DNA of 64,000 bases from an uncultured Thermoplasmatales archaeon (lineage in GTDB: Archaea; Thermoplasmatota; E2; DHVEG-1): positions 721 to 64,720 of the forward strand of contig CAZOBL010000001.1 in NCBI GenBank assembly GCA_964578185.1, in the 5' to 3' direction. The position numbers and the translations under genes were made by a program. The notes under the pieces are model-generated. The model was not told where the DNA came from. It saw nothing but the letters and a program-made list of their open reading frames with translations, and ran no database searches. This document shows, piece by piece, positions 23,729-50,311 of the stretch. Position 1 is the stretch's first letter. Each line of letters begins with the position of its first letter.

Positions 23729-23786
23729 AATTATCTAAATGTATTTTTTTCTAAAAAGGATTGTCATGGTATTTTTTAAAAATTTT

Positions 23787-28987: not shown

Positions 28988-29049
28988 TCTTTCTCTCCTC
29001 TCACATTGATTGTATTGCTAAGCATTATATAAAATGTTATAAAAAAATT

Positions 29050-30234: not shown

Positions 30235-30236
30235 AG

Positions 30237-31989: not shown

Positions 31990-34900
31990 TTATTGAATCA
32001 CATAGTATTGAAACTCGTACAAATCTGGGCTTACAGTACTCCATAGGCCTCGTTTTACTTCAAATCTTATTTCAGTTTTGTAAACATTATCAATACCCAT
32101 AGGATCATGAATATACCATTCACCTGTATCAAAAGCCGTTGTGGTTGCGCTGTGAGTTGTATCACCATATACAATATAGTTAATTCTTCTGCAATGTGAG
32201 TTATCATGCCAAGCAAGAAAACGTATCTTTGAAATATCAACAGGGTTGTTGAAGTGTAATTCAATATATGGTGTCCATACCCAATCCCATTTAGGGTAAT
32301 CAGAACCTATTGTACAACCTGCACGAGTGCTAGTATCTCCATCATATGCATTGGTTTCGCTGTTCCATGCGTCATCTGGATCTATGTGATAATCAGCTAA
32401 AGTCCATTGGCCTGTACCACTCCCTACAGTAATTGTGTGAGTAGTTATATCGCTAGTTTTGGATCTTAAATCTGCTACCTGACATCGAACGTTATAATCA
32501 CCTTCTGAGTAATATGTGTGTTCCACTATTTTCCAGCCAGCGTAAAAATGCCAATCTGTCCAACCATTGCCTTCTCCCCAATCCCATCTTATGTAGCTTA
32601 CTATTCCACCAGGATCTGGATCATAGCTATCTGTCGCATCAAATGTTACTGTTTCACCAGCTTCAGGTGTATTTGGAGTCCATGTAAATACAGCTACTGG
32701 CGCCTGGTTTCCTGGTAGACATGCAGGGTATACATTAAACCAGTCGTCTTGTGGTATGTTTTCTGAGAAATCTATGTTAAAATCTACTCCAAATGATACG
32801 TCTCCATCTATTTGCCAATCTCCTGGTGCCAGTCCACCTAATACAGGCTCCCAGTTAATGGTATAGTGATCAAAGTCTATCCAGCTATTTACTGATATAT
32901 CGGCACCATATAAATTATCAAATGAAAACAAAACCGAGAGTTCACCAGTTAGATATGATGAATCTATTGATACTGCTCCATCATACATTCTTGGAAAATC
33001 AACAATGTTGACTTTTAGATAACCAGGGTCTATATCTAAATCTACTACTAAACCAAATAATCCTTTTTGAGTTGAAATATAGGTATCTAAACCGTTTTCC
33101 GTGGAATAATTTGATGATTTATATGTTGTACCATCATAGGTGCTCTCAGTAGTGGTAAGTGTTAAATCTCCTTGTATGTAGAATCCTTGATAAAATGATT
33201 CATCCCCTACTTCTATTAACCCATCAGAGTTTGTTATACTAAAACCTGATTGGCTTTCCAAATATATCGTATCTGTGCTGCCGGTATCTTCCAGTGAAAA
33301 ATCTCCGTTTATACTCAGATATTTTGTATTTATTTTTGCAAATGTATCTACTAAATCTTTGTATACAAATGAGTCAAATGTTATGCTACCATCAAAGTCT
33401 ATTATATAAAAATCTTCATGTTCGTACATTACATTAAAAGTTGTTTGAGATACTTGCATATTTTTAACTTTTACTTTATCAATATATTTTCTTGTGATAC
33501 TTAGATCTGTTATATGAGTTAAAGTGTTAATCTGAGCATTTACAAGTACATCCCAGCTTGAAGGATCATCCCCCCATTGGGTGTAAAAAGAACCATCAAA
33601 GGATGTAGCTGTACTTCTAATTAGATATTGAGTTGAGGCATATATTGTAAGATTAATGTTGTGCGAGCCAGTACCACCTATATACACAGATTTAGGGTTT
33701 GTATCATATGTTATTTCACCGTCAAGTGATAAATCTGATTCAAAAGAAAATACATCTTCGACATTGATTTCTCCGTCAAATGAAAAATCAGTACATAGCC
33801 CCTGAAAATAATTTATATTTCCTTCATAATCATAGTTCCAATCAAGACTTAGTGCACCTTGTAAGGCAAAATATGCATTGGTATAAAATTCAAATTCATT
33901 GAAAAAGGAAAAATCTACATCTGCGTTAACTTGAAAATCAGTTTGACTTGGTATGGATATACCTACTAAATTGTTGTTGTAATCCCAGTTTATTTCATCA
34001 AAATAGAGCAATCCTTCAAATTCTGCTGTACCACCAAATTGCATGAGCTCATCATAATTTACATAAACTGTAATTGGATTTAAAGAGAAGGTAAATCCGT
34101 TTACACTAGTTAATTTAAGGCTTTCAGGGCGGTTTTGCGACATTTGACCAGTCCATTCAAACTCTATATCTCCTTCTAAGCTGACATATGAACCTGATCC
34201 TTCAAATGTAAAGATTAAATTTGACTCTGGGAGTTTTATTTTACCGTAATAAAAAGTTGCGATAAGGTTTGTGTTATAGGTCCCTATGAAAATATAGTTA
34301 GTTGAGGAATCTGTTTCAAATATAATTTCACCAGCAGTTAAGTCTATATCAATAAACTCTACTTCAATTAGATCATTTACATTAACTTTAATGGAACCTG
34401 TTAGATGTGTGCTACTATCCCCAATTATTTTAAATTTAATATAATCTTCAAGATCTGTTAGAACGTAAAATGTACCTGAAGTGGATAATACAAGATTACA
34501 GTCGAGTATAATTTTTGATATTTGAGCACCTGTGGTATTGATGTATACGTTATCTGCTTGGAAAGCATCAATTCTTGCTCCAATTTCAATAGTGCTGCCA
34601 AGTTTAGCATATCCAAGACCTGTAAAAATCATCTCACTTGCTGAGATTACAATATCGCCATTGTTTACATTTATATTAAAATCAGTTAAAGTTAATGTAC
34701 CATAAACTGCTATTTGTATCTCATAATAGCTAAAGTCAGTATTTGCGTATAGGCTTACACCACCACTAAGTACATCTTCAGTGTCAATAGTACCATTAAT
34801 GTGGAGGTTATAACCTGTAATTTTAAAGTGGCAGTTTTTAAAATATACAGACCAAAGTAGAGCATCAAGCTCTATTGTATTTGAAATTGTTAAAACTCCG

Positions 34901-37900
34901 CTTCCACGAATTACAAATCTTTCACCTTCAAATATTGTATATCCATCGTATACATCTATATCAAAATTTTTAAATTCAATTTGACCGACACCATCTAATT
35001 CAAATTCAATATTGTTCAAGCCTATATCTGATCTAAGATGTATTTCTCCATCAAATGAAAAATCAATATCTCCATCTATTACCATATCCTTTGATGGAAA
35101 TACAAAAACGCAGTTGGCTAGATATATTTCAGAGAAGTTTGCATCCATGACTATTTCATCTGTCATCTTTAAAAAAGCGGGTTCATTGAAAACCATACGT
35201 AGAATATCGCCATACATCTTGGCTTTACCGCGTGCAATTTCTATATCAAAATCTGTAAAGCTTATTTCCCCTGAGCCATCCATTTCTAATTCTAATATGT
35301 TAAAATCTCTATCTGCTTTTATATACATTCTACCAATAAATGAAAAGCTGATATCTCCATCGATATTCAAACTGTTTCTTGGTGTGTTAAACTTGCATTC
35401 CTCTGCATAAAGCTCAGTTATAGATGAATCAATTATTATTTCATCTGACATTTCAAAAAATGCTGGTCCTGAAAATATAAATTGCAAAATTTTTCCATTA
35501 ATATTTGTCCCAGAGTTTGTTAGATTTATCTCAAAATCAGATAGTGTGACTTCTCCCGCCCCGTTCATCTGAAATGTGATTATGTTTTGCTCCTGGTCAG
35601 TTTCAATGTATAAAGGGCCTGTAAATGAACAGGTTATATCAGCATTTAGCCGAATGTCGCTGTTTGTCTCTGGGATGTTTATGTGACCGCCATCTATGTT
35701 AAAAGAGTTAATATCTGCATCAATTACTATTATGTCCCCTATTTTAAATGATCCTTCACCATCAAGATAAAGCAATTCAGCGGAAAAAACTGTTCCTTCT
35801 GCAATATCACCATTTGTGTCTTTTACAATTATTTCAAAATCAGTCATTTCAATTGTTGAATCGCCATCTGTTAAATTTATTTCAATATAATCCTGCAGAT
35901 CTGTTAAAATATTTAAATTTCCATTTAATGTAAAATCAAGATTTCCATTAAGTAAAACCTGTGACTCATCTGACTCTTTTATAACATCAAAATACAAGTT
36001 TTCAGTATAAATTGAGTTTATTACTGCATCAATTTCAATATTAGTTACATCATAGTAATCAGGATCAAAAGATATTCCGCCGTTAATATATTCAGTATCA
36101 ATTGATAGTGTATCTGCTGAAACTGAGATTTCCTCTGATATATCCAATACCAGATTATTTATTGTTACATCGGCATCACTTTCAATTGTTATTTCCCCGG
36201 TATCTCTATCCCACCATATGTCAACTATACAATTATCACCAATAAAAGTTCCACCAATTGTTACCTCATAGCCATCTACTATAAATGTATCCTGTGGTAG
36301 GGTAAGTTGTTGGTCAACTGTTATTTGTATATGACCGGGTTGAACTATTATTTCACTTTGCCCCCCGCCAATCATTTTATGCCATAAATCTCGATATAAA
36401 AGCCAGAAGTTACCTTGACCTGCAAGTTTAAGATATCCCTCTATACTAACATTGTTTGGGTTGAAAGGACGTTCATATATAATTAAATCTCCTAGATGGA
36501 TAAAAAACGAGTCTGCTTGCACGTCTACATCATTGAAGCGGATACCTAAATCATTTTCAAATTCAGGTAAATGTAAATCAAGTTCATTGCTATAGTAATT
36601 TATCAATTCCTTTGTAACAATTGCAAATACATTTACTGGTACTGTTTCATTTGTGGTATTTAGATGAATATAATCTTTTGTTTCTGTAACTATATCTTCA
36701 TTATAGGGATCTACCTTTACTGATGCTAAAAGATCAAAGTTGAAAACATCAAATGGTTGATCAAATTCTAAATATACAAATATCGATTTTTCTGGTAGGA
36801 TAATATCTATATCTGTAAAATTTTCAAGAATTTTACTGAGAGGTTGAGTAAAATTAGGGTTTCCAATCTCTACAGCTAAATTGTCAACAGCAGATCCATC
36901 AGTTATGTTAACTGCGACTACTCTAAAAAGACGGCTGAAAAGGTTAAATGTACCCTCTACTAGTTCTGCATCATAAAGTTTTACATAAAAAGGATAATCC
37001 GGCAGTATATCTAGTGGAAACATGAAAGTAAAATTTTCAAAAGTAACACTTGTATCAGCTTGATTATCAAAGTTTAAACATAAAAACAAAGGCATACCAC
37101 TACCCATAATACCCAAGCATATTTGAACAGAGGATTCACCGGTAATGGAGAAGTTTTGTATATGAAATCTACCATAGATATAAAAATTTTCGATATCTAA
37201 ATTCTTTATTAAAAGACTACCCGAGGTTGCATCTATATCTATTGTTAAATTGTTCCAATAAATGGGAACAGTATAATCGTCCTCATTTGTAAATTTAGTA
37301 AAATCATGTGGATAAAAACAAACTTTTCCAATGGTTTCAAGTTCAAGTGTTATCTCCCCAAAAATTGTCCCATTTCCACTTTCGTTTATATTTTTTAAAT
37401 CATCTATATGAAGGTAGACATCTGTATCTGTTAAATTAAATCTAAAATTCGGCAGAGTAAGCTCTGCGTTTACACCAGCATGGCCGGTGATATATCCCGA
37501 TACATTTGTCATGTAAAAAAAGGTTGAATTCTCAACACGTCTTTTATAAATAAATATATCTAGGTCGTCAACCCCAATATCAATATCTCCTTCTGACTCG
37601 ATATTAAAAATTGTTACATCTTCATCTTGCCATTCAAGCTCCAAGCTTACAGTTGTCTGATCGCCTGTTATATAGAGGTTTTCAATATGTGTGTCTAATT
37701 GAAAATCAACTTCTTCATCATTAAAAGTGGTATTTTGAAGTTTAATAGATATATCTGTGTTAAAACCCATATATGATTGATCAATTTCAATATCCATTAG
37801 CAGATATCCGGATTCTTTTGATGCGTCTTCAAGTAAAAAACTTCCTTTAACATAGGATATGCTAATATCTGCTGTATCCTTAAAATAAAATTGGAAATCT

Positions 37901-39966
37901 TCAAGCTCTGCTATACCGCTGCCATCCATAGTATAAACTTTGCGATCATCGACGCTCACCCAGGATATGTTAAATACCTCGTTTTGTGTTTGAAATGTTA
38001 GTATACCCTCAGTCATACCTATTAAAACGCCGTTGTCATCCCAATAATATGAGCTGAAGCTAAAACTTGCACTGCTGCCCGGTTTGATAAGTACATAACC
38101 CCAGTCATCATAGATATGCCATTCAACTTGTACCTCTAGAGTGAAACTAAAAGATTGATTATAATATCCAGATATATCTAAGAGTTGCTCTTCATGAAAA
38201 ACTAAATCATTATACTGAAGTTTAAAACCATGGATTTTAACTCCATTGGTAACTTCAAAATATGAATTTCCATTTATTACATCCCCCGTGTTTTCAACAC
38301 TTAAAGCTGCAGTAATATTGCCCTGTTTTGTCTTCTGCAGATGATCTATTTGTAATGCAAATGTGCCATCTAAAAAAGGTGAATACACATTAAAATCTAA
38401 ATCATCAATGCTAAGCTCACTGCCCGATAGTGTTATACATGTCTGACCACTGCTTATATCTGCAAAATTAAAAATAACTGGTGAAGTAAAACTATTAGTT
38501 ATATTAAAACTACCCTGAACGTTGTTTACAAATTCCCCCAATGTTTCATCAACAATTGATGCGAAAAAATTTACAGATAAATCTTTATTGGATCTGCTTA
38601 AGATAAACTCACTTTTAGATAAATCAAGGCTGATATCACATTCAAACGGCGATTGAGAAGATATATCTGTATAAAACGACCCTATACCCGGTCGTATTAA
38701 ATCTGCATTAAAGGCAGTGTTTTCATCATCACAATAAATGGTTAAAAAGGTTTTACCCTCATCAAAATCACCTTGCCATTGCACCCCCGCAGAACCATCA
38801 ACATCAGAGAAATGAAAGTCATAAAGTGGATTTGCTAAATTATCTGTAACACCTACTTTTTTGATTTTATTACCATGTGTATTAATTTCTATATAACCAG
38901 TTGAGCCAGCGTCAATAGTAAGTGTTACTTTTTTTGGAAAATCTTCAATATATACATAGTTTCTCTTACTTGTTTCTCGATGTTCAACGATAACATCAAC
39001 TTTACTGTTTGTCTGCTGGGAACGTTCAATATAGACAATACCGCCAGGCTCTCGCATGAATAATATTTCAGTTTTGGCAGCAGGATTATTGTGTACTAGG
39101 ATTTTATCTTCTGAAACAAAAGAATTACTATTCATATCTTTGTAAGATAATATAGTAGTTAATTTTTCAGATCCAATGGTTTCATCATCTGGAATGATTT
39201 GTATTCTATGCTCCGGTTTTTTCAAAAACGTTAAAAAATGTGGGACTAACTTATAAACAACATCACAACTCCCTGGTATTTTCTCGTTTTGAGGTGATTG
39301 AAAACCAAAATATATTTTATCACCAGCGTTTTTAGGGCTTAACAAACCAGATCTTTGAAATTCGATAAAAGACTCGAAAAACGCGTTTTCATCCAGATTT
39401 TCAAAACCAACTAATCGATCTATTTCTAGTTTAAGATTAAAAGAAAAAGATAGGGGTCTTACAAATCCTAGAAAGAGTTGAAAATTAGCTTTTATATCAT
39501 CTTTTCCATCATTGTTAATATCTATGTATGCAGGTTTAAAAAGACCTATTGATGATGTTTTCTCAACTTCTTCGTATTTTATATATAAAAATGTGGAAAA
39601 TAGGGAATTTTTTAGATTTGTAAACGTTTTTAAAAAAACATTATCACTGCTTGATTTAATGTTTAATTTTGATTTTATATTTTCAACTAGATTTTCAAAA
39701 TTAGAGGAAAAACTTTTAATTTTTCCTGTAGGTTGATTATTATAGTTTTTTAAATCATGTTGATTATATTCTAAGTTTTTCTTTGTTTCATCATTTAAGC
39801 GTTTAATTCTGTTTTCATTGTTTTCATTTGGTATTTGCTCTTTAAGATTTAAAGCAGATATGGATTGTGTAAAAACTGTAGATAACAAAACTAGAGTTAT
39901 TATAATACAAAATATTTTCTTGTTAAAAATTGATTTAGCTGCTTTTATTAAAGCAGTGTTATACAC
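31990..39966 (-). CDS. Giant secreted surface protein D (2658 aa): shared N-terminal module, long beta-solenoid-like repeat region, C-terminal PKD domain plus discoidin-like jelly-roll domain
   Basis: Single uninterrupted ORF with an N-terminal hydrophobic signal/anchor (IFCIIITLVLLSTVF). The N-terminal ~560 aa are paralogous to the 41747 and 59977 gene products (IDINNDGKDDI..., EWHIYDDWGYVLIKPGSSASFSF). There are ~95-aa tandem repeats (~34950..36000 region). A PKD-like segment VAVFTWTPNTPEAGETVTFDATDSYDPD is present. The C-terminus reads AYDGDTST...LYEFQYYVIQ. Confidence 0.8.
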   Translation of the reverse strand: MYNTALIKAAKSIFNKKIFCIIITLVLLSTVFTQSISALNLKEQIPNENNENRIKRLNDETKKNLEYNQHDLKNYNNQPTGKIKSFSSNFENLVENIKSKLNIKSSSDNVFLKTFTNLKNSLFSTFLYIKYEEVEKTSSIGLFKPAYIDINNDGKDDIKANFQLFLGFVRPLSFSFNLKLEIDRLVGFENLDENAFFESFIEFQRSGLLSPKNAGDKIYFGFQSPQNEKIPGSCDVVYKLVPHFLTFLKKPEHRIQIIPDDETIGSEKLTTILSYKDMNSNSFVSEDKILVHNNPAAKTEILFMREPGGIVYIERSQQTNSKVDVIVEHRETSKRNYVYIEDFPKKVTLTIDAGSTGYIEINTHGNKIKKVGVTDNLANPLYDFHFSDVDGSAGVQWQGDFDEGKTFLTIYCDDENTAFNADLIRPGIGSFYTDISSQSPFECDISLDLSKSEFILSRSNKDLSVNFFASIVDETLGEFVNNVQGSFNITNSFTSPVIFNFADISSGQTCITLSGSELSIDDLDFNVYSPFLDGTFALQIDHLQKTKQGNITAALSVENTGDVINGNSYFEVTNGVKIHGFKLQYNDLVFHEEQLLDISGYYNQSFSFTLEVQVEWHIYDDWGYVLIKPGSSASFSFSSYYWDDNGVLIGMTEGILTFQTQNEVFNISWVSVDDRKVYTMDGSGIAELEDFQFYFKDTADISISYVKGSFLLEDASKESGYLLMDIEIDQSYMGFNTDISIKLQNTTFNDEEVDFQLDTHIENLYITGDQTTVSLELEWQDEDVTIFNIESEGDIDIGVDDLDIFIYKRRVENSTFFYMTNVSGYITGHAGVNAELTLPNFRFNLTDTDVYLHIDDLKNINESGNGTIFGEITLELETIGKVCFYPHDFTKFTNEDDYTVPIYWNNLTIDIDATSGSLLIKNLDIENFYIYGRFHIQNFSITGESSVQICLGIMGSGMPLFLCLNFDNQADTSVTFENFTFMFPLDILPDYPFYVKLYDAELVEGTFNLFSRLFRVVAVNITDGSAVDNLAVEIGNPNFTQPLSKILENFTDIDIILPEKSIFVYLEFDQPFDVFNFDLLASVKVDPYNEDIVTETKDYIHLNTTNETVPVNVFAIVTKELINYYSNELDLHLPEFENDLGIRFNDVDVQADSFFIHLGDLIIYERPFNPNNVSIEGYLKLAGQGNFWLLYRDLWHKMIGGGQSEIIVQPGHIQITVDQQLTLPQDTFIVDGYEVTIGGTFIGDNCIVDIWWDRDTGEITIESDADVTINNLVLDISEEISVSADTLSIDTEYINGGISFDPDYYDVTNIEIDAVINSIYTENLYFDVIKESDESQVLLNGNLDFTLNGNLNILTDLQDYIEINLTDGDSTIEMTDFEIIVKDTNGDIAEGTVFSAELLYLDGEGSFKIGDIIVIDADINSFNIDGGHINIPETNSDIRLNADITCSFTGPLYIETDQEQNIITFQMNGAGEVTLSDFEINLTNSGTNINGKILQFIFSGPAFFEMSDEIIIDSSITELYAEECKFNTPRNSLNIDGDISFSFIGRMYIKADRDFNILELEMDGSGEISFTDFDIEIARGKAKMYGDILRMVFNEPAFLKMTDEIVMDANFSEIYLANCVFVFPSKDMVIDGDIDFSFDGEIHLRSDIGLNNIEFELDGVGQIEFKNFDIDVYDGYTIFEGERFVIRGSGVLTISNTIELDALLWSVYFKNCHFKITGYNLHINGTIDTEDVLSGGVSLYANTDFSYYEIQIAVYGTLTLTDFNINVNNGDIVISASEMIFTGLGYAKLGSTIEIGARIDAFQADNVYINTTGAQISKIILDCNLVLSTSGTFYVLTDLEDYIKFKIIGDSSTHLTGSIKVNVNDLIEVEFIDIDLTAGEIIFETDSSTNYIFIGTYNTNLIATFYYGKIKLPESNLIFTFEGSGSYVSLEGDIEFEWTGQMSQNRPESLKLTSVNGFTFSLNPITVYVNYDELMQFGGTAEFEGLLYFDEINWDYNNNLVGISIPSQTDFQVNADVDFSFFNEFEFYTNAYFALQGALSLDWNYDYEGNINYFQGLCTDFSFDGEINVEDVFSFESDLSLDGEITYDTNPKSVYIGGTGSHNINLTIYASTQYLIRSTATSFDGSFYTQWGDDPSSWDVLVNAQINTLTHITDLSITRKYIDKVKVKNMQVSQTTFNVMYEHEDFYIIDFDGSITFDSFVYKDLVDTFAKINTKYLSINGDFSLEDTGSTDTIYLESQSGFSITNSDGLIEVGDESFYQGFYIQGDLTLTTTESTYDGTTYKSSNYSTENGLDTYISTQKGLFGLVVDLDIDPGYLKVNIVDFPRMYDGAVSIDSSYLTGELSVLFSFDNLYGADISVNSWIDFDHYTINWEPVLGGLAPGDWQIDGDVSFGVDFNIDFSENIPQDDWFNVYPACLPGNQAPVAVFTWTPNTPEAGETVTFDATDSYDPDPGGIVSYIRWDWGEGNGWTDWHFYAGWKIVEHTYYSEGDYNVRCQVADLRSKTSDITTHTITVGSGTGQWTLADYHIDPDDAWNSETNAYDGDTSTRAGCTIGSDYPKWDWVWTPYIELHFNNPVDISKIRFLAWHDNSHCRRINYIVYGDTTHSATTTAFDTGEWYIHDPMGIDNVYKTEIRFEVKRGLWSTVSPDLYEFQYYVIQ

Positions 39967-40196: not shown

Positions 40197-41591
40197 TTAT
40201 ATAGGGTTGTTTTGGTTATTATTCGCTGCGACAGTTATTGTGGCTGTGGTGCTTGTATCTGTAGTTTGACCGGTTTCGTCATCCTTGAGGGTTATGCTTG
40301 TTGTATATGTTCCTTCTTGTGAGTAGGTATGGGTATATTGCTCATATCCATTATCCTCATAGTCTGTTTGTGTTATTGTGGCTTCACCGACATTGAATAT
40401 AAATTCGTATTCACCGCTGCCTCCAAATGCCCAACCGCTAAATGAAACTGTTTCTCCTTCTTCAACAGTAATGGTTTGCCCAGGGTCAGGTATACAACTG
40501 GCTAAATAAGCAGGTTCAGGATTTGATTCATCTCCTCCGTCCTCGGGTGGAAGAGGATTTGAGTTGGATTCATCTGAACCTTCATCTTGATTATTTGAGT
40601 CATCATTTGTATTTTGCTGAGTTGTACCTGTATCTATTTGAGTTGTAGTTGCTGTCGTACCCGTCAGTTGTACTAAATTGTTTTTATCTCCGAAAATTCC
40701 GCATCCTGATAATATTGTTGGTTCTGCATCAAGCTCTAGTTCTACCATACCAGTTGCTGTCTTCTTGATTAAAGGTAAATTATTTGTTGAAATAATTCCC
40801 GGTTCAGTATTTGCTATTAGAAAGTTATGATATGGTTCTACTTCAATGTTATATGATTTTTGTTGATCAGAAATATGCTGTATTGAGTTTATTATATTTC
40901 CAAGGATGTTATCACCTATATCTAACTCTGATGCTTTAACATATGAATTATCTTGGAAAACAGGATGATTTGGTGTAATTTTTAAATTATCGTTAAATAT
41001 GAGATATCCCTCTTTCATTTCTTCTTCACTATGATGATAAGTATCTACTACTTCGCCGATGACAAGCTCCCCTGTATCAGGGTTATATGATATAACTAAA
41101 TCTCCAATTAATATGTCCTTTATTGATTTTAGAATTATCTCTAATGTCTGAGAGTCGACAACTAAAACTTTTGTATCTGATAAAAAACATGTTGCCTCTG
41201 AACTAGATGATGTTGATTTAGGGACTGTTAAAGATGAGGGGGGAGACCAGCCACTCTCAAGGCCTGTTACAGCATCTTTTGCTTTAGCTCTTACACTATA
41301 ATCTCCTTTCTCGTTATAGGTATGACAAAGGGTGCAGGAATTACCTGGTGTGTATTCACCTACCCAATCACTAGTAGTTCCATCACCCCAAGAAAACATA
41401 TAGAATAGATTGTTGCCTTCAGGATTTGTCGCCGAGGTGGTAAAACATGCACTTTCTCCTTCTTTAATTTGACTAGGGCCAGACGGAGCCGAAGGCGTGT
41501 TTGGAGGTTGTGGATCACTTAGAGCAATTACAGAAAATGTTAAACTTAAGGTTATTGCTACGATAAGTAGCATTGTTCTTGTTTTATTCAT
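40197..41591 (-). CDS. Secreted PKD – Hint (intein-like autoprocessing) – low-complexity stalk – PKD-like protein
   Basis: 464 aa with a signal peptide. The first PKD domain is FYMFSWGDGTT...GDYSVRAKAKD. Hint blocks are present: A (C135, CFLSDTKVLVVD), B (TYHH, a TxxH motif) and G (PYHN, with F following). A T/G/D/N/E-rich linker is followed by a C-terminal Ig/PKD-like domain. Confidence 0.75.
   Translation of the reverse strand: MNKTRTMLLIVAITLSLTFSVIALSDPQPPNTPSAPSGPSQIKEGESACFTTSATNPEGNNLFYMFSWGDGTTSDWVGEYTPGNSCTLCHTYNEKGDYSVRAKAKDAVTGLESGWSPPSSLTVPKSTSSSSEATCFLSDTKVLVVDSQTLEIILKSIKDILIGDLVISYNPDTGELVIGEVVDTYHHSEEEMKEGYLIFNDNLKITPNHPVFQDNSYVKASELDIGDNILGNIINSIQHISDQQKSYNIEVEPYHNFLIANTEPGIISTNNLPLIKKTATGMVELELDAEPTILSGCGIFGDKNNLVQLTGTTATTTQIDTGTTQQNTNDDSNNQDEGSDESNSNPLPPEDGGDESNPEPAYLASCIPDPGQTITVEEGETVSFSGWAFGGSGEYEFIFNVGEATITQTDYEDNGYEQYTHTYSQEGTYTTSITLKDDETGQTTDTSTTATITVAANNNQNNPI
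40824..41189 (-). other. Hint (Hedgehog/intein-like, BIL-type) domain within the 40197..41591 CDS
   Basis: A ~122-aa segment runs from Cys135 (EAT-CFLSDTKV) to His-Asn255-256 (EVEPYHN-F). TxxH (T184-H187) is ~50 aa after the Cys. There is no endonuclease insertion and the +1 residue is Phe, which is BIL-like rather than a splicing intein. Confidence 0.6.
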
Positions 41592-41746: not shown

Positions 41747-44700
41747 TTAATTTGCGTTTAAATCCCATAATTCAAATTCGTATAACTCAGCGGAACAACC
41801 GCCAAGGCATCCTTGTAGATTAAATCTAACTCTCACCTTTGAAACATCAACACTAGCTCCGAGATATGCTTCATCCCATTGTTCGTTGTTAAAAGATCTT
41901 AGACATACATCATTCCAGATGCCGTTGTAGTATGCATCAACTTCTATCCATCTTATGTATTCAGCTGAATATAGGGCATTAAATCTTACCTTGTTGGAGT
42001 ACACATCATTGTTAAATGTTAATTCAAGCCACCCGGTCCATTGCCAGTCCTCCCACCATGCTCTTAGGTTACTTTCTGCGCTAGTGGATGTGCTACCATC
42101 ATATGCATCTGATTCACGGTTCCAATCAATACTTGGGTCACTATTTCCATCTGGACTAACCCAGTCACCAGATGGAGGAGCATAAACATGAGGTAGTTGT
42201 ATGGACCCAGTTGTTGGTTCACGAGTTGTAAATTCTCCATCGCTGAATTCAAAGTAACATTCATAATCCCCTGGGTCAAGATATGTAGTATATTCATAGG
42301 TTACACCAGCTTGGTAATCAGGATTTGAGCCTACACGGTTCATATTATAGTAATTCCAAGTTGTATCACTTTGTTCTTTTATATATACCCGCCTCATTGT
42401 TGGTGGATCTCCATTTGAATCTGAATAAATAATATTATATGTGAACGGATCAGTCGATGGACCAGAGTTAGGGTTAATTGTTGGAGTTGTAAGTTCTGGA
42501 GCTTCATTTGGCGACTCCTGTATGACAACAGTTGCAGTAGTTACATCACTTTGAGAAAACGCAGTTTTGACTTGGAAACGTACTGTAACAGAGCTATGAA
42601 CTCCTACCAAATCAGAGTAGTCATGTGTCTTTATTTCTTGATAGTTTATCCAATGATTTGGCCAAGTTCCTGTATCCCAGTTTCCATCTCCATCCCAGTC
42701 AAACCTCATCTTTGTAAGTGGGAATATCATACCATCGCTATCTGATGTATCAAATGTTACAATCCAATTATTATTTTGATTTGCATAATATGTATCCTTA
42801 TCAAGTACAGCTACAGGCTTCCAAGGATATACCTGCAACCAATTAATCTGATTGAAGGTTAAATGGCCTGAGTTAAATGCAAATCTAATAAATCCGTTTG
42901 CGGTAATACTTCCACTCCAGCCAATTCCTTGTACATTACCAACAGGAGGAATTGTACCAACAAATGTTCCATGTACTACCCAGTCAGCGATAACAAGCTG
43001 ATTTAAATCTACATGTAAACCAATAGTACGGGGTTGACTTCCAATGATTGCATAACAATGACATACAACCTTCAAAGATACACTTTGTAGAAAGTCCTGA
43101 GCGTTTGTATCCAGGTTTACATGAAATGTGCCTAGGTCATTGTCGTCTTCTGCAGGATATACATGGTAATCAGCTGTAAAAACTCCTTCTGAGTTAAATG
43201 TAAGACCTGCATCAATTAAGGGTATGTCAGCGGATTTACCTGAGTCAATAAAATCTACTTCTAAATTATTTATTGTACCAGTTATCGATAAAGACTCTAT
43301 TGTGATCCAGCCTCTTCTAGCAAGTGTTTCTTCCTGTGGTGCTTGAACTAAAAATCTTCCACCACCAGGACCAACTGTTGATAGTTGAAGGTTTGCAGAA
43401 GACCATGTAGCAGTTACATCACCAAGAACGGGCAAGGGGCCACTATATAGGAAATTATTAATTGTAACAGATCCAGATCCCTCTACAATAATATCAATAT
43501 CATATGTCTCATATGATTGAACTTGTGACTCATATACTATCAAATCAACGGCTAAATTACCTGTTATCGTCATATCAGCTTTTATCTCGATTTCAACGGG
43601 GTCTTCTTCTCCGTTTCCACCTCCGCCGCCTCCACCGTTATCGCTGGAGCTTAAATCGATTGATATTTCGCCTACGCTAGCACCAAGATTTAATGATAAC
43701 AAAGGCACTTCCAGTTTTATTTCTCCACTATTTATTATAAGAGTTAACGTTGTGATATCTATATTAAGCTGCCCTGTTGCATCAATTGTAAGTATTTTAT
43801 CTACAAATTCAACAAAACCTGTTGTACCAGATAGAGTTATATCAAAATATGTACACTGGAATTGATGATAATCTGGAGATATAACTGAGTTTGAATATTT
43901 AATATCTGTGTTTTCAATTGTAAACGAGCCACCGGCACCATAAATATCAGCCCTAATACCATCGTTTTTGTCGAAATCTATTATTAATTGATCTGCATCT
44001 GCATTTAAAGATATAGAAAGTGAGGTTACATCAATTGAATGTTCACTATTATTTAGATCAATGTAACAATTTGAGGCAGATAAAGACAGCCCTGCTGATA
44101 CACCGCTATCACCATTTACAAACAGTTTATCATCTTTAAATTTGACATAACCAGTGTTTACATTTATTGAAAGACCAATTGAATAGGCATCTACTATAGT
44201 GACACCATTGTTTATATCCAAATAAAAGTTTGTTAGATCAACTTCAACAGATCCATCAAGTTCAAGTTCAAAATAGCTTAATGACAAGTCAGCCGGTGTT
44301 TTAATATAAACATGACCTGAGCCAGATATATCAATTGTGCTATCTAAATAGATATCCTTTGATGATAAATGGAAATTACAGTTGTCAAAAATTAAAGATG
44401 TTAAAGAAGCATCTATTTCGATATCCCCACCTGTTTTAAATGAACCATATCCTGATGCGGATAATTTAATTCTTGTGCCTGACGCAGTTACTGCTCCACC
44501 ATCAAGAATTATGTTAAATGAAGTAAGATCAATATATCCTGAACCTGTTAATCTTATCTCAAGTTCACTTCCAAAATTACTTTTTATGTATAGCTTACCC
44601 GATAATGACAGGTCTATGTTTCCGCTAAATGTTAGGCTGCTAGAGCTTGCATACAAGTATAAATTATCGACGTTGAATAGTGATAGTGTTGCATCTAATT

Positions 44701-47700
44701 CAAGGTATGAGCCTATGTATACTGTTCCGTAACCTGACAGTATTACTTGATCCCATTCAACTATTAAGGCACCATTTTGTATGTTTAAATCAAAGTAATC
44801 AATTTGAGCATAAGCATTTGCATTTACAGTTATTTCAATATAGCTTAAATCTGATGCAGAGTAAATTATTAGGTCACCGTTTAAGGTTAAATCAAATTTT
44901 GTACATGATAATGAGAATTCGTTTTCATTTATCTCTATGTAGAAATTATCAATTACTAAAGTTAGCCCCCCATCTACTTGAAGGTAAAAGTCCATACTTT
45001 GAGTTACTTTTATTGTCAAACCCACATCGCCTATGAAATTAAACTCTCCATTTAGCTCAATTGAGTTAAACAATACTGGAAACTCATTTATATCTATATC
45101 TAAAATTAGAGTATCAACAACAGCTTGATCTATCCCTGCATCAAATTCTATTATATCATCGGTAATTAAGAGGTTGCCACCTGAACCAGTTACACCTATC
45201 TCATTAGCTGAAATATCTACTCCATCTAGTTGAAATAAAAGAGTAGTTAAACTAAATTCAAATGTTCCATCACGTTGTAGATCTCCACCAAATTTGATAA
45301 AAGGACTATCTGATGTTAGATCCCAGTCGACCCAGAAGTATCCTTTAGAGCTGCTTATGATGTCAACAGTTAACATTCCTTGAAGAACGAAGGGTGTTGG
45401 TCCATAATCAAGGTTTACATCTATATCAACATTTAATGATGACTCATCAACTATAAGTGAAAAATTCCCACTTCTTCCTTCTCTAAACTCCATTCTACCA
45501 GCTATATAGCTTATTTGCATGTCAATACTATCTTCAAATGTAAAAATAAAATCATCGATGTAGAACTCGCCAGTTCCTTCTACTGTTATTGGTATTAAAT
45601 CCTCTCCACCTGAACTATAATTGATATAAACATAATCTGTAACAGATTCAAAATAGAAATGACCGTTTAAAAAACCAGATTTACCATTAATTGTAAAAGT
45701 AAAACTGTTAACGTTAATATCGATATATCCGCCAATTCTGATACTAACATTTTCTCCGTCAGAGGTTACATCAACGCCTTCTTGGCCGCCTCCACCAGAT
45801 CCGCCTTTTGTTTTAAGATCAACATATGATGTTGCAATATTTTCGGGGCTGTTAATGTCGGTTATGTTAATATCTCCACTCAAGTCAACACCATCCTGAT
45901 TAGGTGCATCTACTGTGAAATGGACGACTTCTGCACCACGATATGGTATAGTTCCTTCTGTTGAAGAGAAACTGTAGTACTGATTTGGATAATCGGTAAT
46001 ACTCCAGTTTAAAGAAGAATCTTTATTATTCCATATCCAAAGTGAAGAATCAATTGAGTCACCTGGTGCTATATCTGGTAGATATATGTCAGATGGTATG
46101 CTTGATAGACTTTGTCTAATTGTAAGGATAAAGGAATCGCCATCTTCACCAGGGCCTGCATAATCAATGTTATCCGCACCGACAAATATTCCTGAGTGTT
46201 CTTTATGATCAGCCGGTGGCAAAAATGATACATCAATTCTTTTTGTTTCTTGAGGATTTAAAAAACCAGTTTCAGGATCAAAATCGAAATCATATTCTTC
46301 TTGTACACCTGGAGGGTAAAATACCCCTGCCTCCCATTCAAGTATGTAGTCTTCATCATCTTTATTTAAAATTTCAAACCAAGTACGAAGCCTGCCATCA
46401 CTTTCGACATCCTCGTATGTAACTATTTTTGGTCCAGTTTTATTTATTGTTAGATATGTTATTTTCTGTATTAACTCGATATTCATATCATCATAAACGG
46501 GATCTATTGAAGGATCACTGGTTGTAACTGACACGGTTGGATTGTATGTTCCTAAAACATAGTTATGCTCTTTGATAATTCTTGTATCATCTGTTGTAAC
46601 CTCATAGGTGTCACCATCATCAAAATCAATGCTATATGTAAATGGGCTTAAATCTTCGTTTTCAAAACCTATGGGTGGTGCATACCATGCCTCAAATTGT
46701 AAAGTAGAATTATCAGATGGGGTATTATACGTTCCCCCTGTCAATTTTGGTCCAGTTGTAAGCAATACAACTTGACCTGTAGAGCTAAATGGTAGGATGG
46801 GCATCCAACCTGTTTCATTTGTTTTGATTTGTATTACAGCATTTAAATTGCCAGATATATTAATATCAATATTTGAAATGGTAATAGTACTATTCTCTTT
46901 TTGGATTGTTCCTGCAAATTTTAAAAGACCGTTTATTTCTCCAGCTAATCTTATGTCCGGTAACGGATAAGATTCACCTGTTAAAACATTTAATACCTCT
47001 TCAATAGATGTTGCAAGTACACCGCTTGCTTCTTTTCCATCAACTACTAAAGATATTCTGTTTTCTTCAGATATATGTAAATCAACCCATAAATCAACTG
47101 TTCCTTTTAAACGCAATAGCTCTTCACCTTCAAGCTCAATTTTTATATAACCTGAAGAATAGCCATAGAGATATAGTGAATAGTCACCAGCAGAAATTTC
47201 CCCGCCGCTGATTAGTGCGAAAACTAAATCTAAAAGGTTTTGTTGAACTATTATATCAAGTTTTCCTGGTTCAAATATTAAAGAAAAATCGTTGTCAACT
47301 GAACTAATACGTGTTTCTTCATAGATATCACCATATAAATATACCCATGATAATGATGTAAGATCTAGAAATCCTTCAATTTGGGCACTTCCCTCAATTT
47401 CAATATTTGAAGCTGGGATTTGCATACCCTGGAATATAAGGATAAAACTACCAATGGAAAAATAACTTTTTTGAATGCCAATAACAGGTTGACCTGTAAC
47501 CTGATTAAAACCAATGCTAATATAGCCATCACTTGCATCAGCTACAAAATCCCTTAGAAAGATCTGAAGTACACCCGGATAACCTATATATATTGAGTCT
47601 GCTTCAATTGTACTATCAGTTGTAAATGTTATTTGAACAGGTATATCTTCTGAAGTATCAACATTAAAAGTAATAGTGGTTGCACCATGTATGTACAATG

Positions 47701-50311
47701 CTTCTACATTAAGCTCAATTGGTAAAGATGGATCGGGGACTACAAACCATAAAGTGTTAATTACTATATCTGAATCATCATATACTGCACCATTTAGAAC
47801 AATTACATCATCGATATATGAAAAATCAATAAAACCTTCTCCAGTAAAAGTTACATCTAAATCAACTGCTACAGGCAAGGGACTAGAAAGCGAAGTTGAA
47901 ACACTCAAATCAGATATATTAATATTTGTCAATCCTACATTTGCTACTATTGATAGGTCATCATCTTCTATTCCAACTGTTACATTTAGCTCCCCAGTAA
48001 TCGAAAATTCATTGAATGATATATCAACAAGACTGTCACCATAACTAAAGACAAAATCTTTTAACTCGATTGAACCTGTTACACCTGCATTAAAGCTTCC
48101 ATTAAGATAATTGATACCTGATTCATTCCAGGCTATATCAAGACTTCCTGATGCGGAGCCATCTAAATCTATGCTTATACCTGCTTTTAAGGTTATGTCA
48201 AACAAATCTGTGATATTGATTTTTTCTATATCTAAATCAGCTGAATAAGTAAATTCGTCAATAAGCAATGATAGGCTACCTGATTTAGTAGCACCATCCG
48301 TGTGAATTGTAAATTGACCAAGCAGGTGCGGTATCGAAACATCTATTTTATCTTCAAAACAGAACTGCAAATCCTCAAGTTCTGCAACACCCATGCCATC
48401 AATTGAAAAACTAATATTGCCATCAATGGTCCTCCAAGATATGTTAAATGGTCTATTGATTACTTCAAATCTTATATTACCCATTATATGACCGACAGGA
48501 TCGCCATTTGTATTCTTGTAAACTGAGTTAAATGAAAACATTGCAAGGCTACCTGCATGAATTAGTACGTACCCCCAGTCATCATATACATGCCATTCAA
48601 GTGAAATATTTATTGAAAAGTTATACCATCGAGTAATTGTTCCAGATATATCAACGTCACTTCTATGAAACTCAAACTCATTATATTTTAAAGAAAAATC
48701 GGTGATTTGCACACCATGCTCAACAAAAAAACGGCAGCTACCAGATATATTGCCGTTATCCTGCTGTATTGAAAGACTTGTACTTATAGAGCCGGCTTTC
48801 TGTTTTACTAAACTATCAAAAGATATCTCAAAATCGCCACCGATAAGAGGTGAACTACCCATTATTTGAAGATCATCAATTTCTAGTGATTTACCAAAAA
48901 GCTCTACTTCTACAACACCTTCTTTGAGTTTATCAAACCAGATTTCAAATGAGTCATCAAAAGTGTTAGAAAGAGTAAAAGAACCAACTAGAGAACTAAT
49001 GTAGTCATCTAGTGTTTCATTAAACACCTGGATGTCAAAAGATACATCTAAATCGACATTGGTTCTATCAAAGATGATAAACCCTTGAGATAAATCCATT
49101 TCAAAAGATGCATCATAAGATTCAGAAGAAGTAACTTCCAGATAGCCGATACCATTTTCAGGATCGTTTATATCCGCATTAAAAGTAACATCTGGACCAT
49201 GTGTATATGCTCTTAAATCAAATTGACCTTGCAGAAGGTTTCTATTCCATTGGATACCCGCTTTTGTAGCAAAATTAGTAAAATAAAATTTATAAGTAGG
49301 ATTTTCAAAACTGTCACATATACCAAATTCATCAGCGGAATCACCATGTGAATCAAACTCAACAATACCAGATGAGCCCATATCTATTTTTAAGCTAATC
49401 TTTTCAGGCAAGTTTTTCACATAAGCATAAGTTGTATCTCCACCCTTTTTATGTGTTAATTCAAGGTTTACATTGGTATTTTCAGTTCTAACTCTTTCAA
49501 AGTTAAAAGACGCAAAGCCCTGTCTTCCAAATATTATTTCTGAATTAGCGGCTTTATTGTATTTTACTTTGAATGTATCCTTTGTAACTATACTGTTATC
49601 TTCAACATCCTCATAGGATAGTATGAGATTGAGTTTTTCATTTCCAACAGTGCTTTCATCTGGTTTTATGTTGATATGATGTTCAGGTTTTTCTCTAAGG
49701 AAAAGTAAATGTGGCACAAAACGATAGGTGACTGTACAATCCGCTGGAATTTTCTCACCCCCAGGCGATTCATAACCATAGCTTAATGTGTCTCCAGTGA
49801 TGTTTTTAACTAAAAAACCAGGAAACGCTATTTTTGTATATGCACTGAACTCTTTTTCATCATCGAGTTCTTCAAAACCTTCGAGTAGCTCAATAGATAC
49901 TCTAAAGTTTATAGCTAAAGCAAAAGGTTTTACAATTGATGGATACAAAAAAACCCTGGCTCTTATATCTTCCTGGTCATCACTGTTGATATCAATATAT
50001 GACCAGCTAAACATGTTCATTCCAACTGTTTTTTCTTCTCCATCGTATTTTATGTTAAAAGAAAGTGTGCTGCTTTGCCCTTGTGAAAGCGTTTTTACAA
50101 CACCAAAAAAACGATTATTTGAAAGGTCAATATTTTTTATTTTCTCAGTTACATTTCTTACTTTATCTTTAATATTAGAAATTTTTTCTTCCAGATTAGA
50201 TTCATCATTGTTTAAACTGATGTCTTTACCTAAAATATTTTCTCTAGGTTTATCTTTAAAGTTTATAGAACTTGCAGAGGTTACAAAAACACTACATATG
50301 AGTATAAGCAC
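41747..50311 (-). CDS. Giant secreted surface protein C (2854 aa); paralogue of D with the same N-terminal module and C-terminal PKD plus discoidin-like domain
   Basis: Single ORF with a GTG start at 50311 (rc gtgcttatactc). It is collinear with giant D over the N-terminal ~560 aa. There are ~94-aa tandem repeats (IDLSLSGKLYIK...IDISGSGHVYIK). Two Gly-rich hinges are present (GGSGGGGQ at ~45781-45815; GGGGGGGNGEE at ~43612-43660). The C-terminus reads AYDGSTSTSAES...CSAELYEFELWD. Confidence 0.8.
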   Translation of the reverse strand: MLILICSVFVTSASSINFKDKPRENILGKDISLNNDESNLEEKISNIKDKVRNVTEKIKNIDLSNNRFFGVVKTLSQGQSSTLSFNIKYDGEEKTVGMNMFSWSYIDINSDDQEDIRARVFLYPSIVKPFALAINFRVSIELLEGFEELDDEKEFSAYTKIAFPGFLVKNITGDTLSYGYESPGGEKIPADCTVTYRFVPHLLFLREKPEHHINIKPDESTVGNEKLNLILSYEDVEDNSIVTKDTFKVKYNKAANSEIIFGRQGFASFNFERVRTENTNVNLELTHKKGGDTTYAYVKNLPEKISLKIDMGSSGIVEFDSHGDSADEFGICDSFENPTYKFYFTNFATKAGIQWNRNLLQGQFDLRAYTHGPDVTFNADINDPENGIGYLEVTSSESYDASFEMDLSQGFIIFDRTNVDLDVSFDIQVFNETLDDYISSLVGSFTLSNTFDDSFEIWFDKLKEGVVEVELFGKSLEIDDLQIMGSSPLIGGDFEISFDSLVKQKAGSISTSLSIQQDNGNISGSCRFFVEHGVQITDFSLKYNEFEFHRSDVDISGTITRWYNFSINISLEWHVYDDWGYVLIHAGSLAMFSFNSVYKNTNGDPVGHIMGNIRFEVINRPFNISWRTIDGNISFSIDGMGVAELEDLQFCFEDKIDVSIPHLLGQFTIHTDGATKSGSLSLLIDEFTYSADLDIEKINITDLFDITLKAGISIDLDGSASGSLDIAWNESGINYLNGSFNAGVTGSIELKDFVFSYGDSLVDISFNEFSITGELNVTVGIEDDDLSIVANVGLTNINISDLSVSTSLSSPLPVAVDLDVTFTGEGFIDFSYIDDVIVLNGAVYDDSDIVINTLWFVVPDPSLPIELNVEALYIHGATTITFNVDTSEDIPVQITFTTDSTIEADSIYIGYPGVLQIFLRDFVADASDGYISIGFNQVTGQPVIGIQKSYFSIGSFILIFQGMQIPASNIEIEGSAQIEGFLDLTSLSWVYLYGDIYEETRISSVDNDFSLIFEPGKLDIIVQQNLLDLVFALISGGEISAGDYSLYLYGYSSGYIKIELEGEELLRLKGTVDLWVDLHISEENRISLVVDGKEASGVLATSIEEVLNVLTGESYPLPDIRLAGEINGLLKFAGTIQKENSTITISNIDINISGNLNAVIQIKTNETGWMPILPFSSTGQVVLLTTGPKLTGGTYNTPSDNSTLQFEAWYAPPIGFENEDLSPFTYSIDFDDGDTYEVTTDDTRIIKEHNYVLGTYNPTVSVTTSDPSIDPVYDDMNIELIQKITYLTINKTGPKIVTYEDVESDGRLRTWFEILNKDDEDYILEWEAGVFYPPGVQEEYDFDFDPETGFLNPQETKRIDVSFLPPADHKEHSGIFVGADNIDYAGPGEDGDSFILTIRQSLSSIPSDIYLPDIAPGDSIDSSLWIWNNKDSSLNWSITDYPNQYYSFSSTEGTIPYRGAEVVHFTVDAPNQDGVDLSGDINITDINSPENIATSYVDLKTKGGSGGGGQEGVDVTSDGENVSIRIGGYIDINVNSFTFTINGKSGFLNGHFYFESVTDYVYINYSSGGEDLIPITVEGTGEFYIDDFIFTFEDSIDMQISYIAGRMEFREGRSGNFSLIVDESSLNVDIDVNLDYGPTPFVLQGMLTVDIISSSKGYFWVDWDLTSDSPFIKFGGDLQRDGTFEFSLTTLLFQLDGVDISANEIGVTGSGGNLLITDDIIEFDAGIDQAVVDTLILDIDINEFPVLFNSIELNGEFNFIGDVGLTIKVTQSMDFYLQVDGGLTLVIDNFYIEINENEFSLSCTKFDLTLNGDLIIYSASDLSYIEITVNANAYAQIDYFDLNIQNGALIVEWDQVILSGYGTVYIGSYLELDATLSLFNVDNLYLYASSSSLTFSGNIDLSLSGKLYIKSNFGSELEIRLTGSGYIDLTSFNIILDGGAVTASGTRIKLSASGYGSFKTGGDIEIDASLTSLIFDNCNFHLSSKDIYLDSTIDISGSGHVYIKTPADLSLSYFELELDGSVEVDLTNFYLDINNGVTIVDAYSIGLSINVNTGYVKFKDDKLFVNGDSGVSAGLSLSASNCYIDLNNSEHSIDVTSLSISLNADADQLIIDFDKNDGIRADIYGAGGSFTIENTDIKYSNSVISPDYHQFQCTYFDITLSGTTGFVEFVDKILTIDATGQLNIDITTLTLIINSGEIKLEVPLLSLNLGASVGEISIDLSSSDNGGGGGGGNGEEDPVEIEIKADMTITGNLAVDLIVYESQVQSYETYDIDIIVEGSGSVTINNFLYSGPLPVLGDVTATWSSANLQLSTVGPGGGRFLVQAPQEETLARRGWITIESLSITGTINNLEVDFIDSGKSADIPLIDAGLTFNSEGVFTADYHVYPAEDDNDLGTFHVNLDTNAQDFLQSVSLKVVCHCYAIIGSQPRTIGLHVDLNQLVIADWVVHGTFVGTIPPVGNVQGIGWSGSITANGFIRFAFNSGHLTFNQINWLQVYPWKPVAVLDKDTYYANQNNNWIVTFDTSDSDGMIFPLTKMRFDWDGDGNWDTGTWPNHWINYQEIKTHDYSDLVGVHSSVTVRFQVKTAFSQSDVTTATVVIQESPNEAPELTTPTINPNSGPSTDPFTYNIIYSDSNGDPPTMRRVYIKEQSDTTWNYYNMNRVGSNPDYQAGVTYEYTTYLDPGDYECYFEFSDGEFTTREPTTGSIQLPHVYAPPSGDWVSPDGNSDPSIDWNRESDAYDGSTSTSAESNLRAWWEDWQWTGWLELTFNNDVYSNKVRFNALYSAEYIRWIEVDAYYNGIWNDVCLRSFNNEQWDEAYLGASVDVSKVRVRFNLQGCLGGCSAELYEFELWDLNAN

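Follow-up and report, generated by a model that had tools for sequence, protein, structure and literature searches.

A Hint domain of the BIL/PT-HINT kind in a secreted archaeal PKD protein encoded between giant genes, with candidate autoproteolysis at its N-terminal junction

Results

The window studied here is a 64,000-nucleotide stretch of DNA from an uncultured Thermoplasmatales archaeon (GenBank assembly GCA_964578185.1, contig CAZOBL010000001.1, positions 721 to 64,720). Wedged between giant genes, it encodes a secreted protein of 464 amino acids (aa) in which a PKD domain is followed by a Hint domain, a low-complexity stalk and a second, PKD-like module. This open reading frame (ORF) contains a genuine Hint domain of the bacterial intein-like (BIL)/PT-HINT kind. 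The catalytic residues that the domain retains and those that it has lost lead us to favor, with considerable reserve, autoproteolysis at its N-terminal junction as the main outcome; the C-terminal reaction appears weakened, and processing of the N-terminal junction would therefore be the conserved activity. The original prediction, made from the letters of the window, had proposed a BIL-like Hint domain in a secreted PKD protein of an archaeon, and this is supported by profile searches, by structure comparison and by the archaeal marker genes of the window.

Identity and fold of the Hint domain

Among Pfam families, PT-HINT (PF07591) matched the Hint domain above threshold (E = 4.7e-9, 37.1 bits against a gathering cut-off of 27.7), with weaker matches to Intein_splicing and Vint; the NCBIfam models for intein N- and C-terminal regions matched it below their cut-offs. 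Outside the PKD part, the best sequence matches in the PDB were 2LWY, the “bacterial intein-like domain” of Clostridium thermocellum (E = 2e-8), and 8W20, an “intein C-terminal splicing domain-containing protein.” Thus, the proposed Hint similarity was upheld when the domain was compared with Hint and BIL profiles. We also made a family profile hidden Markov model (HMM) from 183 domain copies found in the best 150 related proteins. Run against the six-frame translation of the window, it matched this ORF alone (163.8 bits, E = 5e-50) and found no Hint domain in the flanking giants.

A single-sequence AlphaFold2 (AF2) model of the whole protein was unusable (pLDDT 32.8), and we replaced it with a model of residues 126–320 based on a 49-sequence alignment, which reached a pLDDT of 87.3 and a pTM of 0.82. 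When this model was compared with the PDB using Foldseek, the BIL domains 6Y75 and 2LWY and the mini-intein 1MI8 led the matches, each with a probability of 1.00. The top match was BIL2 from the Tetrahymena BUBL1 locus (6Y75/6TMM, E = 9e-8). 2LWY aligned with a target TM score of 0.74 and a root-mean-square deviation (rmsd) of 3.2, and the Ssp DnaB mini-intein 1MI8 with a target TM score of 0.72 and an rmsd of 2.7. Hedgehog (1AT0) was a distant match (E = 9e-3); all 32 PDB entries matched at E ≤ 1e-3 were BIL, intein or Vint structures.

Catalytic motifs

We based the motif map on an alignment of the 183 related Hint copies. Cys135, originally named as the block A nucleophile, was correctly assigned; its column holds Cys in 176 of the 183 copies, and the residue is invariant across homologs of the same architecture. 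Block B is T206-P-N-H209, which lines up with IKTTFDHPFY, the corresponding segment of 2LWY; the T206 column holds Thr in 179/183 copies and the H209 column His in 178/183. Block B had been mistakenly placed at TYHH (residues 184–187), where T184 is Thr in only 39/183. Between blocks A and B the family has a motif of its own, FHHxxEEMxxYYL, in which His187 is kept in 157/183 copies and Tyr196 in 173/183; this motif is absent from 2LWY.

Block F, YNIEVEPYHNFLIAN, keeps H255 in 167/183 copies, and its N256 column is N in 101 and T in 71. It includes PYHN|F (residues 253–257), which had been taken for the terminal His-Asn of a domain of ~122 aa. However, in all relatives the Hint domain extends past block F, and in the window protein it goes on for 13 residues after PYHNF, to G-I-I-S-T269-N270. 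Because it ends at N270 and not at PYHNF, the domain spans 136 aa (residues 135–270).

The N270 column holds Asn in 172/183 copies. The penultimate position is His in 169/183 and Thr269 in the window protein, and the family consensus at the C-terminus is (I/L)(L/V)VHN, followed by K, A, G or D. The full C...T..H...H-N set is present in 160 of the 183 copies. The register may be shifted by one, which would place N270 at the His position and make N271 the terminal residue; the His is absent in either register. With the His of “His-Asn” missing from block G, cleavage at the C-terminus is less certain than the N-terminal reaction. At the +1 position the 183 copies have K in 52, A in 37, G in 19, D in 16, S in 11, T in 4 and C in none. 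The +1 residue of the window Hint is N271, followed by L272, and is not a nucleophile; the initial view that neither an endonuclease nor an extein-splicing context is present was borne out.

A four-member subclade with a conserved extension

Three other proteins have the Hint architecture of the window protein: P0002 (349 aa, 61% identical to it, on a 1.4-kb contig), P0038 (362 aa, encoded by a complete gene at locus L004 and ending in a T/S-rich tail) and P0042 (355 aa, with a T/S-rich tail). The unit conserved in all four comprises a putative signal peptide, whose layout in the window protein is repeated in the other three, a PKD domain, a short S/T/E-rich linker, the Hint domain, an extension of ~40 residues and a low-complexity tail rich in T and S. 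Residues C135, T206, N208 and H209 do not vary among the four members, and the orthologs share 39–58% overall identity. The penultimate His is missing in every member (T in the window protein; D, G and L in the orthologs), the Asn-Asn at the Hint end (270–271) is kept in all, and Asn replaces the block F His in P0038. Besides the Hint gene, locus L004 and the window have no gene in common.

The extension carries the motif P291-x-I-x-x-G-x-G-x-F-G-D-K303-x-N-x-V307 (window 40671–40721), invariant in the four members. No Pfam family matched the extension (residues 271–310), and neither Pfam nor NCBIfam gave a match to residues 271–362. The AF2 model assigns the extension strands at 274–277, 283–286 and 297–301, with block pLDDT values of 79–92. 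A strict regular expression for the motif matched the four subclade members only. A looser pattern, G[DN]K within 60 residues, was observed 21 times against ~10 expected, with six of these owed to the next tandem Hint, and was not clearly above chance. A shorter hydrophobic-x-G-D-K sequence follows the Hint in the closest giant relatives (P0022, P0025, P0028, P0060 and P0074); overall enrichment is not clear. A profile search with the four-sequence alignment of Hint plus extension found no new subclade members and returned distant, mostly bacterial PT-HINT proteins. Scanning metagenome contigs gave no match, and scanning genome contigs gave one distant Thermoplasmatales locus, L001.

Both PKD assignments of the original prediction stand, at different strengths. 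The N-terminal domain is a strong match to Pfam PKD (E = 2.2e-12) and PKD_4 (E = 3.4e-8), and to the PKD domain of PDB entry 4XED across residues 28–125 (E = 2.6e-18). The C-terminal module is PKD-like; it scores just under the Pfam PKD cut-off (E = 1.9e-4, 21.8 bits against 23.5) and is detectably related to the N-terminal PKD domain by phmmer. Among the four members the window protein alone has this second module. Together with the N-P-I end of the protein (window 40200–40505), it shows 62% identity to the C-terminal end of P0009, a secreted 484-aa protein that has no Hint domain and comes from another surface-protein locus (L003:8451–9905). Because it is restricted to the window protein and so similar to the end of P0009, we regard the second PKD as a cassette that has been shuffled among these proteins and lies outside the conserved unit. 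Thus, the PKD-Hint-PKD architecture, which the original prediction had suggested looking for in other archaeal genomes, is not conserved as such. The sequence of the window protein contains no membrane anchor of its own.

The Hint family of Thermoplasmatales-type archaea

With the Hint segment (residues 130–275) as query, HMMER was run against the whole set of 1.84 billion cluster representatives and returned 2849 related proteins at E ≤ 1e-3; of these, 465 reached E ≤ 1e-10 and 25 reached E ≤ 1e-30. Those closest relatives whose origin we could trace came from Thermoplasmatales-type archaea, and the closest relatives are often giant proteins. P0025 is HEC94537.1 of a Thermoplasmatales archaeon, and L001 belongs to an uncultured Thermoplasmatales metagenome-assembled genome. 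At locus L005, genes for an HVO_0163-type helix-turn-helix (HTH) protein and for AF_1625_C adjoin those for giant Peptidase_C25/Hint proteins, and loci L006 and L008 carry genes for an archaeal ribosomal protein, SRP19 and eIF-6. Archaeal relatives are 35–60% identical, and bacterial PT-HINT proteins are more distant (25–32%). Two giants of 3331 and 3469 aa (L005:2–9997 and L005:22844–28343) join Peptidase_C25 with Hint domains of this family.

At least two Hint copies are present in 56 of the 149 top relatives, with up to six copies, and 14 matched stretches in one protein. The copies often stand in tandem, separated by linkers as short as 2–5 residues (e.g., VAHN-KP-CLLAGT). In 27 of 140 relatives, no more than 30 residues follow the last Hint. 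At least 22 of the 149 relatives start with a class III (type IV pilin-like) signal sequence, and in 21 the Hint begins at residue 107–149. L006:2302–11138 and L008:304–12538 represent a conserved archaeal type-IV-pilus-like operon, encoding T2SSE, two T2SSF, DUF7289 and DUF7266/DUF2341 proteins, with two Hint-bearing proteins. Overall, the BIL-type Hint domains of these archaea occur as single copies, at the very end of a protein or in tandem arrays, within giant surface proteins and type-IV-pilin-like proteins.

The Hint family and the neighboring giant proteins

Locus L007, from another low-GC archaeal assembly (GCA_964391965.1, GC content 33%), resembles the window in its organization. In it, two giant genes (10001–20200, encoding P0033, and 20444–29899) are followed by a GT4/GT5 glycosyltransferase gene. 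The N-terminal 450–530 aa of the L007 giants match the 2854-aa (window 41747–50311) and 2658-aa (window 31990–39966) proteins with 24–27% identity (E = 1e-25 to 1e-37). The L007 glycosyltransferase, of 376 aa, was likened to the GT4/GT5 enzyme encoded after the giant genes in the window by its length and Pfam families only. P0033 has 3399 aa and three Hint domains of this family, and it ends LLVHN-GGTK at a genuine TAA stop, four residues past the last Hint. Because the protein ends there, this last Hint can act at its N-terminal junction only.

In the 2658-aa and 2854-aa giants, the C-terminal ~140 aa (window 31993–32427 and 41750–42199, minus strand) form a shared domain that has no Pfam match. 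HHalign found this domain to be homologous to the tails directly after the Hint in P0154 and P0113 (probability 97.6%, E = 3.7e-12); phmmer found no similarity between those tails and the window giants, and only the profile-profile comparison detected one. These sequence relationships indicate that the giant-protein family around the gene and the Hint family are evolutionarily entangled. In L007 the Hint lies inside a giant, whereas the window giants are Hint-free and flank the gene for a small PKD-Hint protein.

Proposed reaction at the N-terminal junction

From the observed identity, fold, residues, architecture and archaeal context of the domain, we infer the chemical steps and the fate of the fragments as follows. 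After Sec export and folding of the protein, Cys135, aided by Thr206 and His209 of block B, would attack the Thr134-Cys135 bond and form a thioester; the −1 position occupied by Thr134 is T or S in 100/183 related copies. The thioester would be resolved, most simply by water, and an 11.5-kDa PKD module (residues ~25–134) would come off a 35.9-kDa Hint-stalk-PKD remainder. Cyclization of Asn270 would release the part downstream of the Hint, but this reaction has probably been slowed or lost because the assisting penultimate His is Thr here and Asp, Gly or Leu in the orthologs. The end of P0033, and the relatives in which few residues follow the last Hint, suggest that chemistry at the N-junction is the core function of the Hint family.

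Several points weigh against this reading. Only four members of the subclade are known, and the contigs of three are no longer than 2.4 kb (1.4–2.4 kb), which leaves conservation statistics and gene context thin. Block G is degenerate and the block F His is lost in P0038 as well, so that the domain could be partly or fully inactive. In the AF2 model, the block G segment has no strand assignment (block pLDDT of only ~73–82). Conservation of Asn270-Asn271 in the four members suggests that C-terminal Asn chemistry may matter, and splicing does occur in some natural inteins that lack the penultimate His. Simple hydrolysis, moreover, would leave the invariant post-Hint motif without a role.

Alternative explanations

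The thioester might instead serve a transfer of the Hedgehog or BUBL kind, in which an extracellular, ATP-independent reaction would link the C-terminus of the PKD module covalently to a specific nucleophile. Candidate acceptors would be a lysine or the N-terminus of a partner (e.g., the neighboring giants), an envelope glycan or a lipid, and the extension could act as an adduct-recognition region. The top structural match is to BIL2 of a BUBL locus, which conjugates an upstream ubiquitin-like domain to lysines by isopeptide bonds without ATP (PMC8616854). Retention of the N-terminal catalytic residues, with loss of the penultimate His and gain of an invariant extension, recalls the Hedgehog layout of cargo, Hint and recognition region (PMC7765530). 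Transfer would also fit a protein without a membrane anchor, and Hint domains of this family are present in homologs of the neighboring giants, in one case as the last domain of the protein. However, the Asn-Asn at the Hint end is unexpected for a Hedgehog-type domain, the extension is conserved in four sequences only, and the ortholog contigs (1.4–2.4 kb) are too short for giant-gene synteny. The case is wholly one of analogy, and we consider such transfer unlikely. A little less likely still, in our judgment, is the fuller picture in which the PKD-Hint protein would be an extracellular ATP-independent ligation device, joining PKD to the giants or the envelope under guidance of the post-Hint motif, and in which Thermoplasmatales-type archaea may cut, release or cross-link surface structures by an undescribed BIL-type Hint system. 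On a par with transfer we place a full type-A BIL reaction, in which a Cys135 thioester and cyclization of Asn270 (or Asn271) would excise a 15.3-kDa Hint domain; the flanks would be released, or the freed alpha-amine would attack the thioester to give a ~32-kDa PKD-stalk-PKD product. The signature C...TxxH...HN without a +1 nucleophile characterizes the wider family (160/183 copies), and BILs of this type cleave at both ends and can splice in this way (PMC4031507). The terminal Asn is kept in the four subclade members, and tandem copies with linkers of 2–5 residues are most easily explained if each copy removes itself. In contrast, replacement of the penultimate His by T, D, G or L in the four members should weaken Asn cyclization, and the orthologs P0038 and P0042 end in T/S-rich tails with no folded domain downstream.

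Alternatively, the Hint domain might be decayed and catalytically dead, kept as a structural spacer or binding module. The degenerate block G throughout the subclade, the lost block F His of P0038 and the rarity of the subclade (four sequences in the collections searched) all fit such decay, but invariance of Cys135, Thr206, Asn208 and His209 at 39–58% identity is what would be expected under selection for the N-terminal reaction, and we consider decay improbable. A polymorphic-toxin module, in which the PT-HINT domain would free a C-terminal toxin into competitors, was suggested by the best Pfam match, since PT-HINT sits just before the toxin in such proteins (PMC3482391). Here the downstream part is the stalk and PKD-like domain, as the original prediction had noted, and we detected no toxin family in it with Pfam or NCBIfam. 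Moreover, the orthologs end in T/S-rich tails, post-Hint tails in relatives are either low-complexity or the C-terminal domain of the window giants, and the next gene, 230 bp on, encodes the 2658-aa surface-type protein and not a small immunity protein. Lacking a downstream toxin family and an immunity-gene context, we rejected toxin release as very improbable. Canonical splicing of a mini-intein from a host protein, the least probable of the readings considered, draws on the weak matches to intein N- and C-terminal splicing models and to mini-intein structures. The intein models, however, fall below their cut-offs, Cys, Ser or Thr is absent at +1 (N271, L272), and the family as a whole has no +1 nucleophile (S or T in 15/183, C in none). 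In addition, the flanks are unrelated shuffled modules and not a conserved host protein. For these reasons a mobile or canonical intein was rejected.

Gene, locus and feature coordinates

The ORF list for the window confirmed the 464-aa ORF and its position between giant genes, as first described. The protein is identical to P0001, a 464-aa ORF on a 69,956-bp contig in NCBI-derived data. Because a Shine-Dalgarno-like GGTGA precedes the ORF and an oligo-T tract follows its stop, the Hint gene looks like a separate gene. Four giant genes are co-oriented with it, those for proteins of 1305, 3145 and 2854 aa upstream and that for the 2658-aa protein downstream; the gaps to its neighbors are 155 bp and, on the downstream side, 230 bp. 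Features of the protein and their coordinates are listed in Table 1.

Table 1. Coordinates of the PKD-Hint-PKD gene and of features within its product (window positions)
Feature	Residues	Window position	Strand	Basis
PKD-Hint-PKD protein gene, complete	464 aa	40197..41591	minus	ORF list; ATG-to-stop
Putative signal peptide, Sec-type, MNKTRTMLLIVAITLSLTFSVIAL	1–24	41520..41591	minus	Basic n-region then hydrophobic core, read from sequence
N-terminal PKD domain (“N-extein” module)	28–125	41217..41510	minus	Pfam and PDB matches
Ser/Thr-rich linker STSSSSEAT; −1 residue Thr134	126–134	41190..41216	minus	Sequence
Hint (BIL/PT-HINT type) autoprocessing domain	135–270	40782..41189	minus	Pfam, 2LWY, family HMM, AF2/Foldseek
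Cys135 codon, block A nucleophile (CFLSDTKV)	135	41187..41189	minus	Cys in 176/183 copies; invariant in four-member subclade
TYHHSEEEM, family-specific “FHHxxEEM” motif	184–192	41016..41042	minus	183-copy alignment
Block B, LKITPNHPVF (T206, H209)	203–212	40956..40985	minus	183-copy alignment; aligns with 2LWY block B
Block F, SYNIEVEPYHNFLIA (H255)	246–260	40812..40856	minus	183-copy alignment
Degenerate block G, GIISTNN (T269, terminal N270, +1 N271)	265–271	40779..40799	minus	Comparison with family consensus
Post-Hint extension, subclade-specific	271–310	40662..40781	minus	Invariant columns in P0001, P0002, P0038, P0042
Low-complexity stalk, rich in T, D, N, Q, G, S, E, P	311–362	40506..40661	minus	Composition
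C-terminal PKD-like module, diverged	363–455	40227..40505	minus	Pfam, phmmer, identity to P0009

The marker genes of the window are archaeal. It encodes a glutamyl-tRNA synthetase of archaeal type (TIGR00463, 504.5 bits against a cut-off of 401.75), an archaeal isopentenyl phosphate kinase (NF040647, 254 bits against 120), a type 2 isopentenyl diphosphate isomerase and HVO_0163-type HTH regulators. Directly downstream of the giant-gene block lies a glycogen/alpha-glucan cluster (window 24279–31367) with two GT4/GT5 glycosyltransferases, a GH57 protein, a debranching enzyme (GDE_N/GDE_C) and a phosphorylase-like protein. The 1305-aa ORF (window 59977–63894, minus strand) has no Pfam match, and a 1189-aa ORF (window 13678–17247, minus strand) has weak matches to CarboxypepD_reg and Ig_J only. 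At window 2580–5684 (plus strand), a 1034-aa protein combines Peptidase_C25 (gingipain-like) with NosD/beta-helix.

Discussion

BIL and PT-HINT domains have been described as bacterial devices for protein diversification and toxin release; here such a domain occurs in an archaeon, in a surface context without a toxin. In the form found in the window, only the N-terminal half of the catalytic machinery is retained, and a conserved extension has been added. The literature that we searched contained no description of non-intein Hint domains in archaeal surface or pilin proteins, although an earlier mention is possible in a 2019 mBio survey of archaeal polymorphic toxins. Nor did it describe tandem Hint arrays, and a survey of archaeal type IV pili does not mention Hint or intein. 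The original prediction had called an archaeal surface protein with a Hint domain unusual, which holds for the literature searched but not for sequence space, with 465 relatives at E ≤ 1e-10.

The hundreds of archaeal relatives, the tandem copies, the pilin-like N-termini in pilus-like operons and the C-terminal copy in a homolog of the giants suggest that self-processing Hint domains are a common, unstudied route of surface maturation or remodeling in uncultured sediment archaea. If the thioester were used for ligation instead of hydrolysis, it would represent a new system for conjugating proteins outside the cell, one that might also find use in protein engineering.

Type-A BILs are defined by a C-terminal His-Asn, the lack of a +1 nucleophile and variable, non-conserved host proteins (PMC4031507, PMC7765530). 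The window domain resembles them (Amitai et al. 2003; Dassa et al. 2004; 2LWY) in its mini Hint fold, N-terminal Cys, TxxH motif and missing +1 nucleophile, in its occurrence in secreted variable proteins and in the His-Asn ends of the surrounding archaeal family. It differs in that it is archaeal and has Thr269-Asn270, the defining His-Asn being missing here as in the three orthologs. Furthermore, its family has the FHHxxEEM motif between blocks A and B, and its subclade has the 40-aa extension. Type-B BILs have intein-like N-terminal motifs and no block G similarity; the block G of the window domain is degenerate, yet the domain nests in a family with canonical VHN ends. In the polymorphic toxins of Zhang et al. 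2012, the Hint stands just before the C-terminal toxin (PMC3482391). The window protein is similar to PT-HINT proteins in its above-threshold Pfam match, its putative Sec export and the placement of the Hint between modular extracellular domains, but it lacks both a downstream toxin domain and an immunity-gene context.

As in BUBL1 BIL2 (6Y75/6TMM), a small folded domain stands immediately upstream of the nucleophile. In BUBL1 this domain goes via its C-terminus to a lysine without ATP (PMC8616854), which for the archaeal protein is hypothetical only. In contrast, BUBL1 BIL2 is eukaryotic and cytoplasmic, has a ubiquitin-like cargo and is 18–20% identical to the archaeal Hint. With Hedgehog and Hog proteins (1AT0), the window protein shares the sequence of secreted cargo, Hint and conserved extension, the retained N-terminal thioester residues and the degenerate C-terminal intein block, and P0033, a homolog of the window giants, has a Hint as its very last domain. 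However, the structural match is weak, the terminal Asn of the window domain is still conserved, a sterol-recognition region is absent, and the extension has no similarity detectable with Pfam. Mini-inteins such as Ssp DnaB (1MI8) have the same fold, and block F of the window domain is near the intein block F pattern; unlike them, the window domain lacks a +1 nucleophile and a homing endonuclease and does not sit in a conserved host protein.

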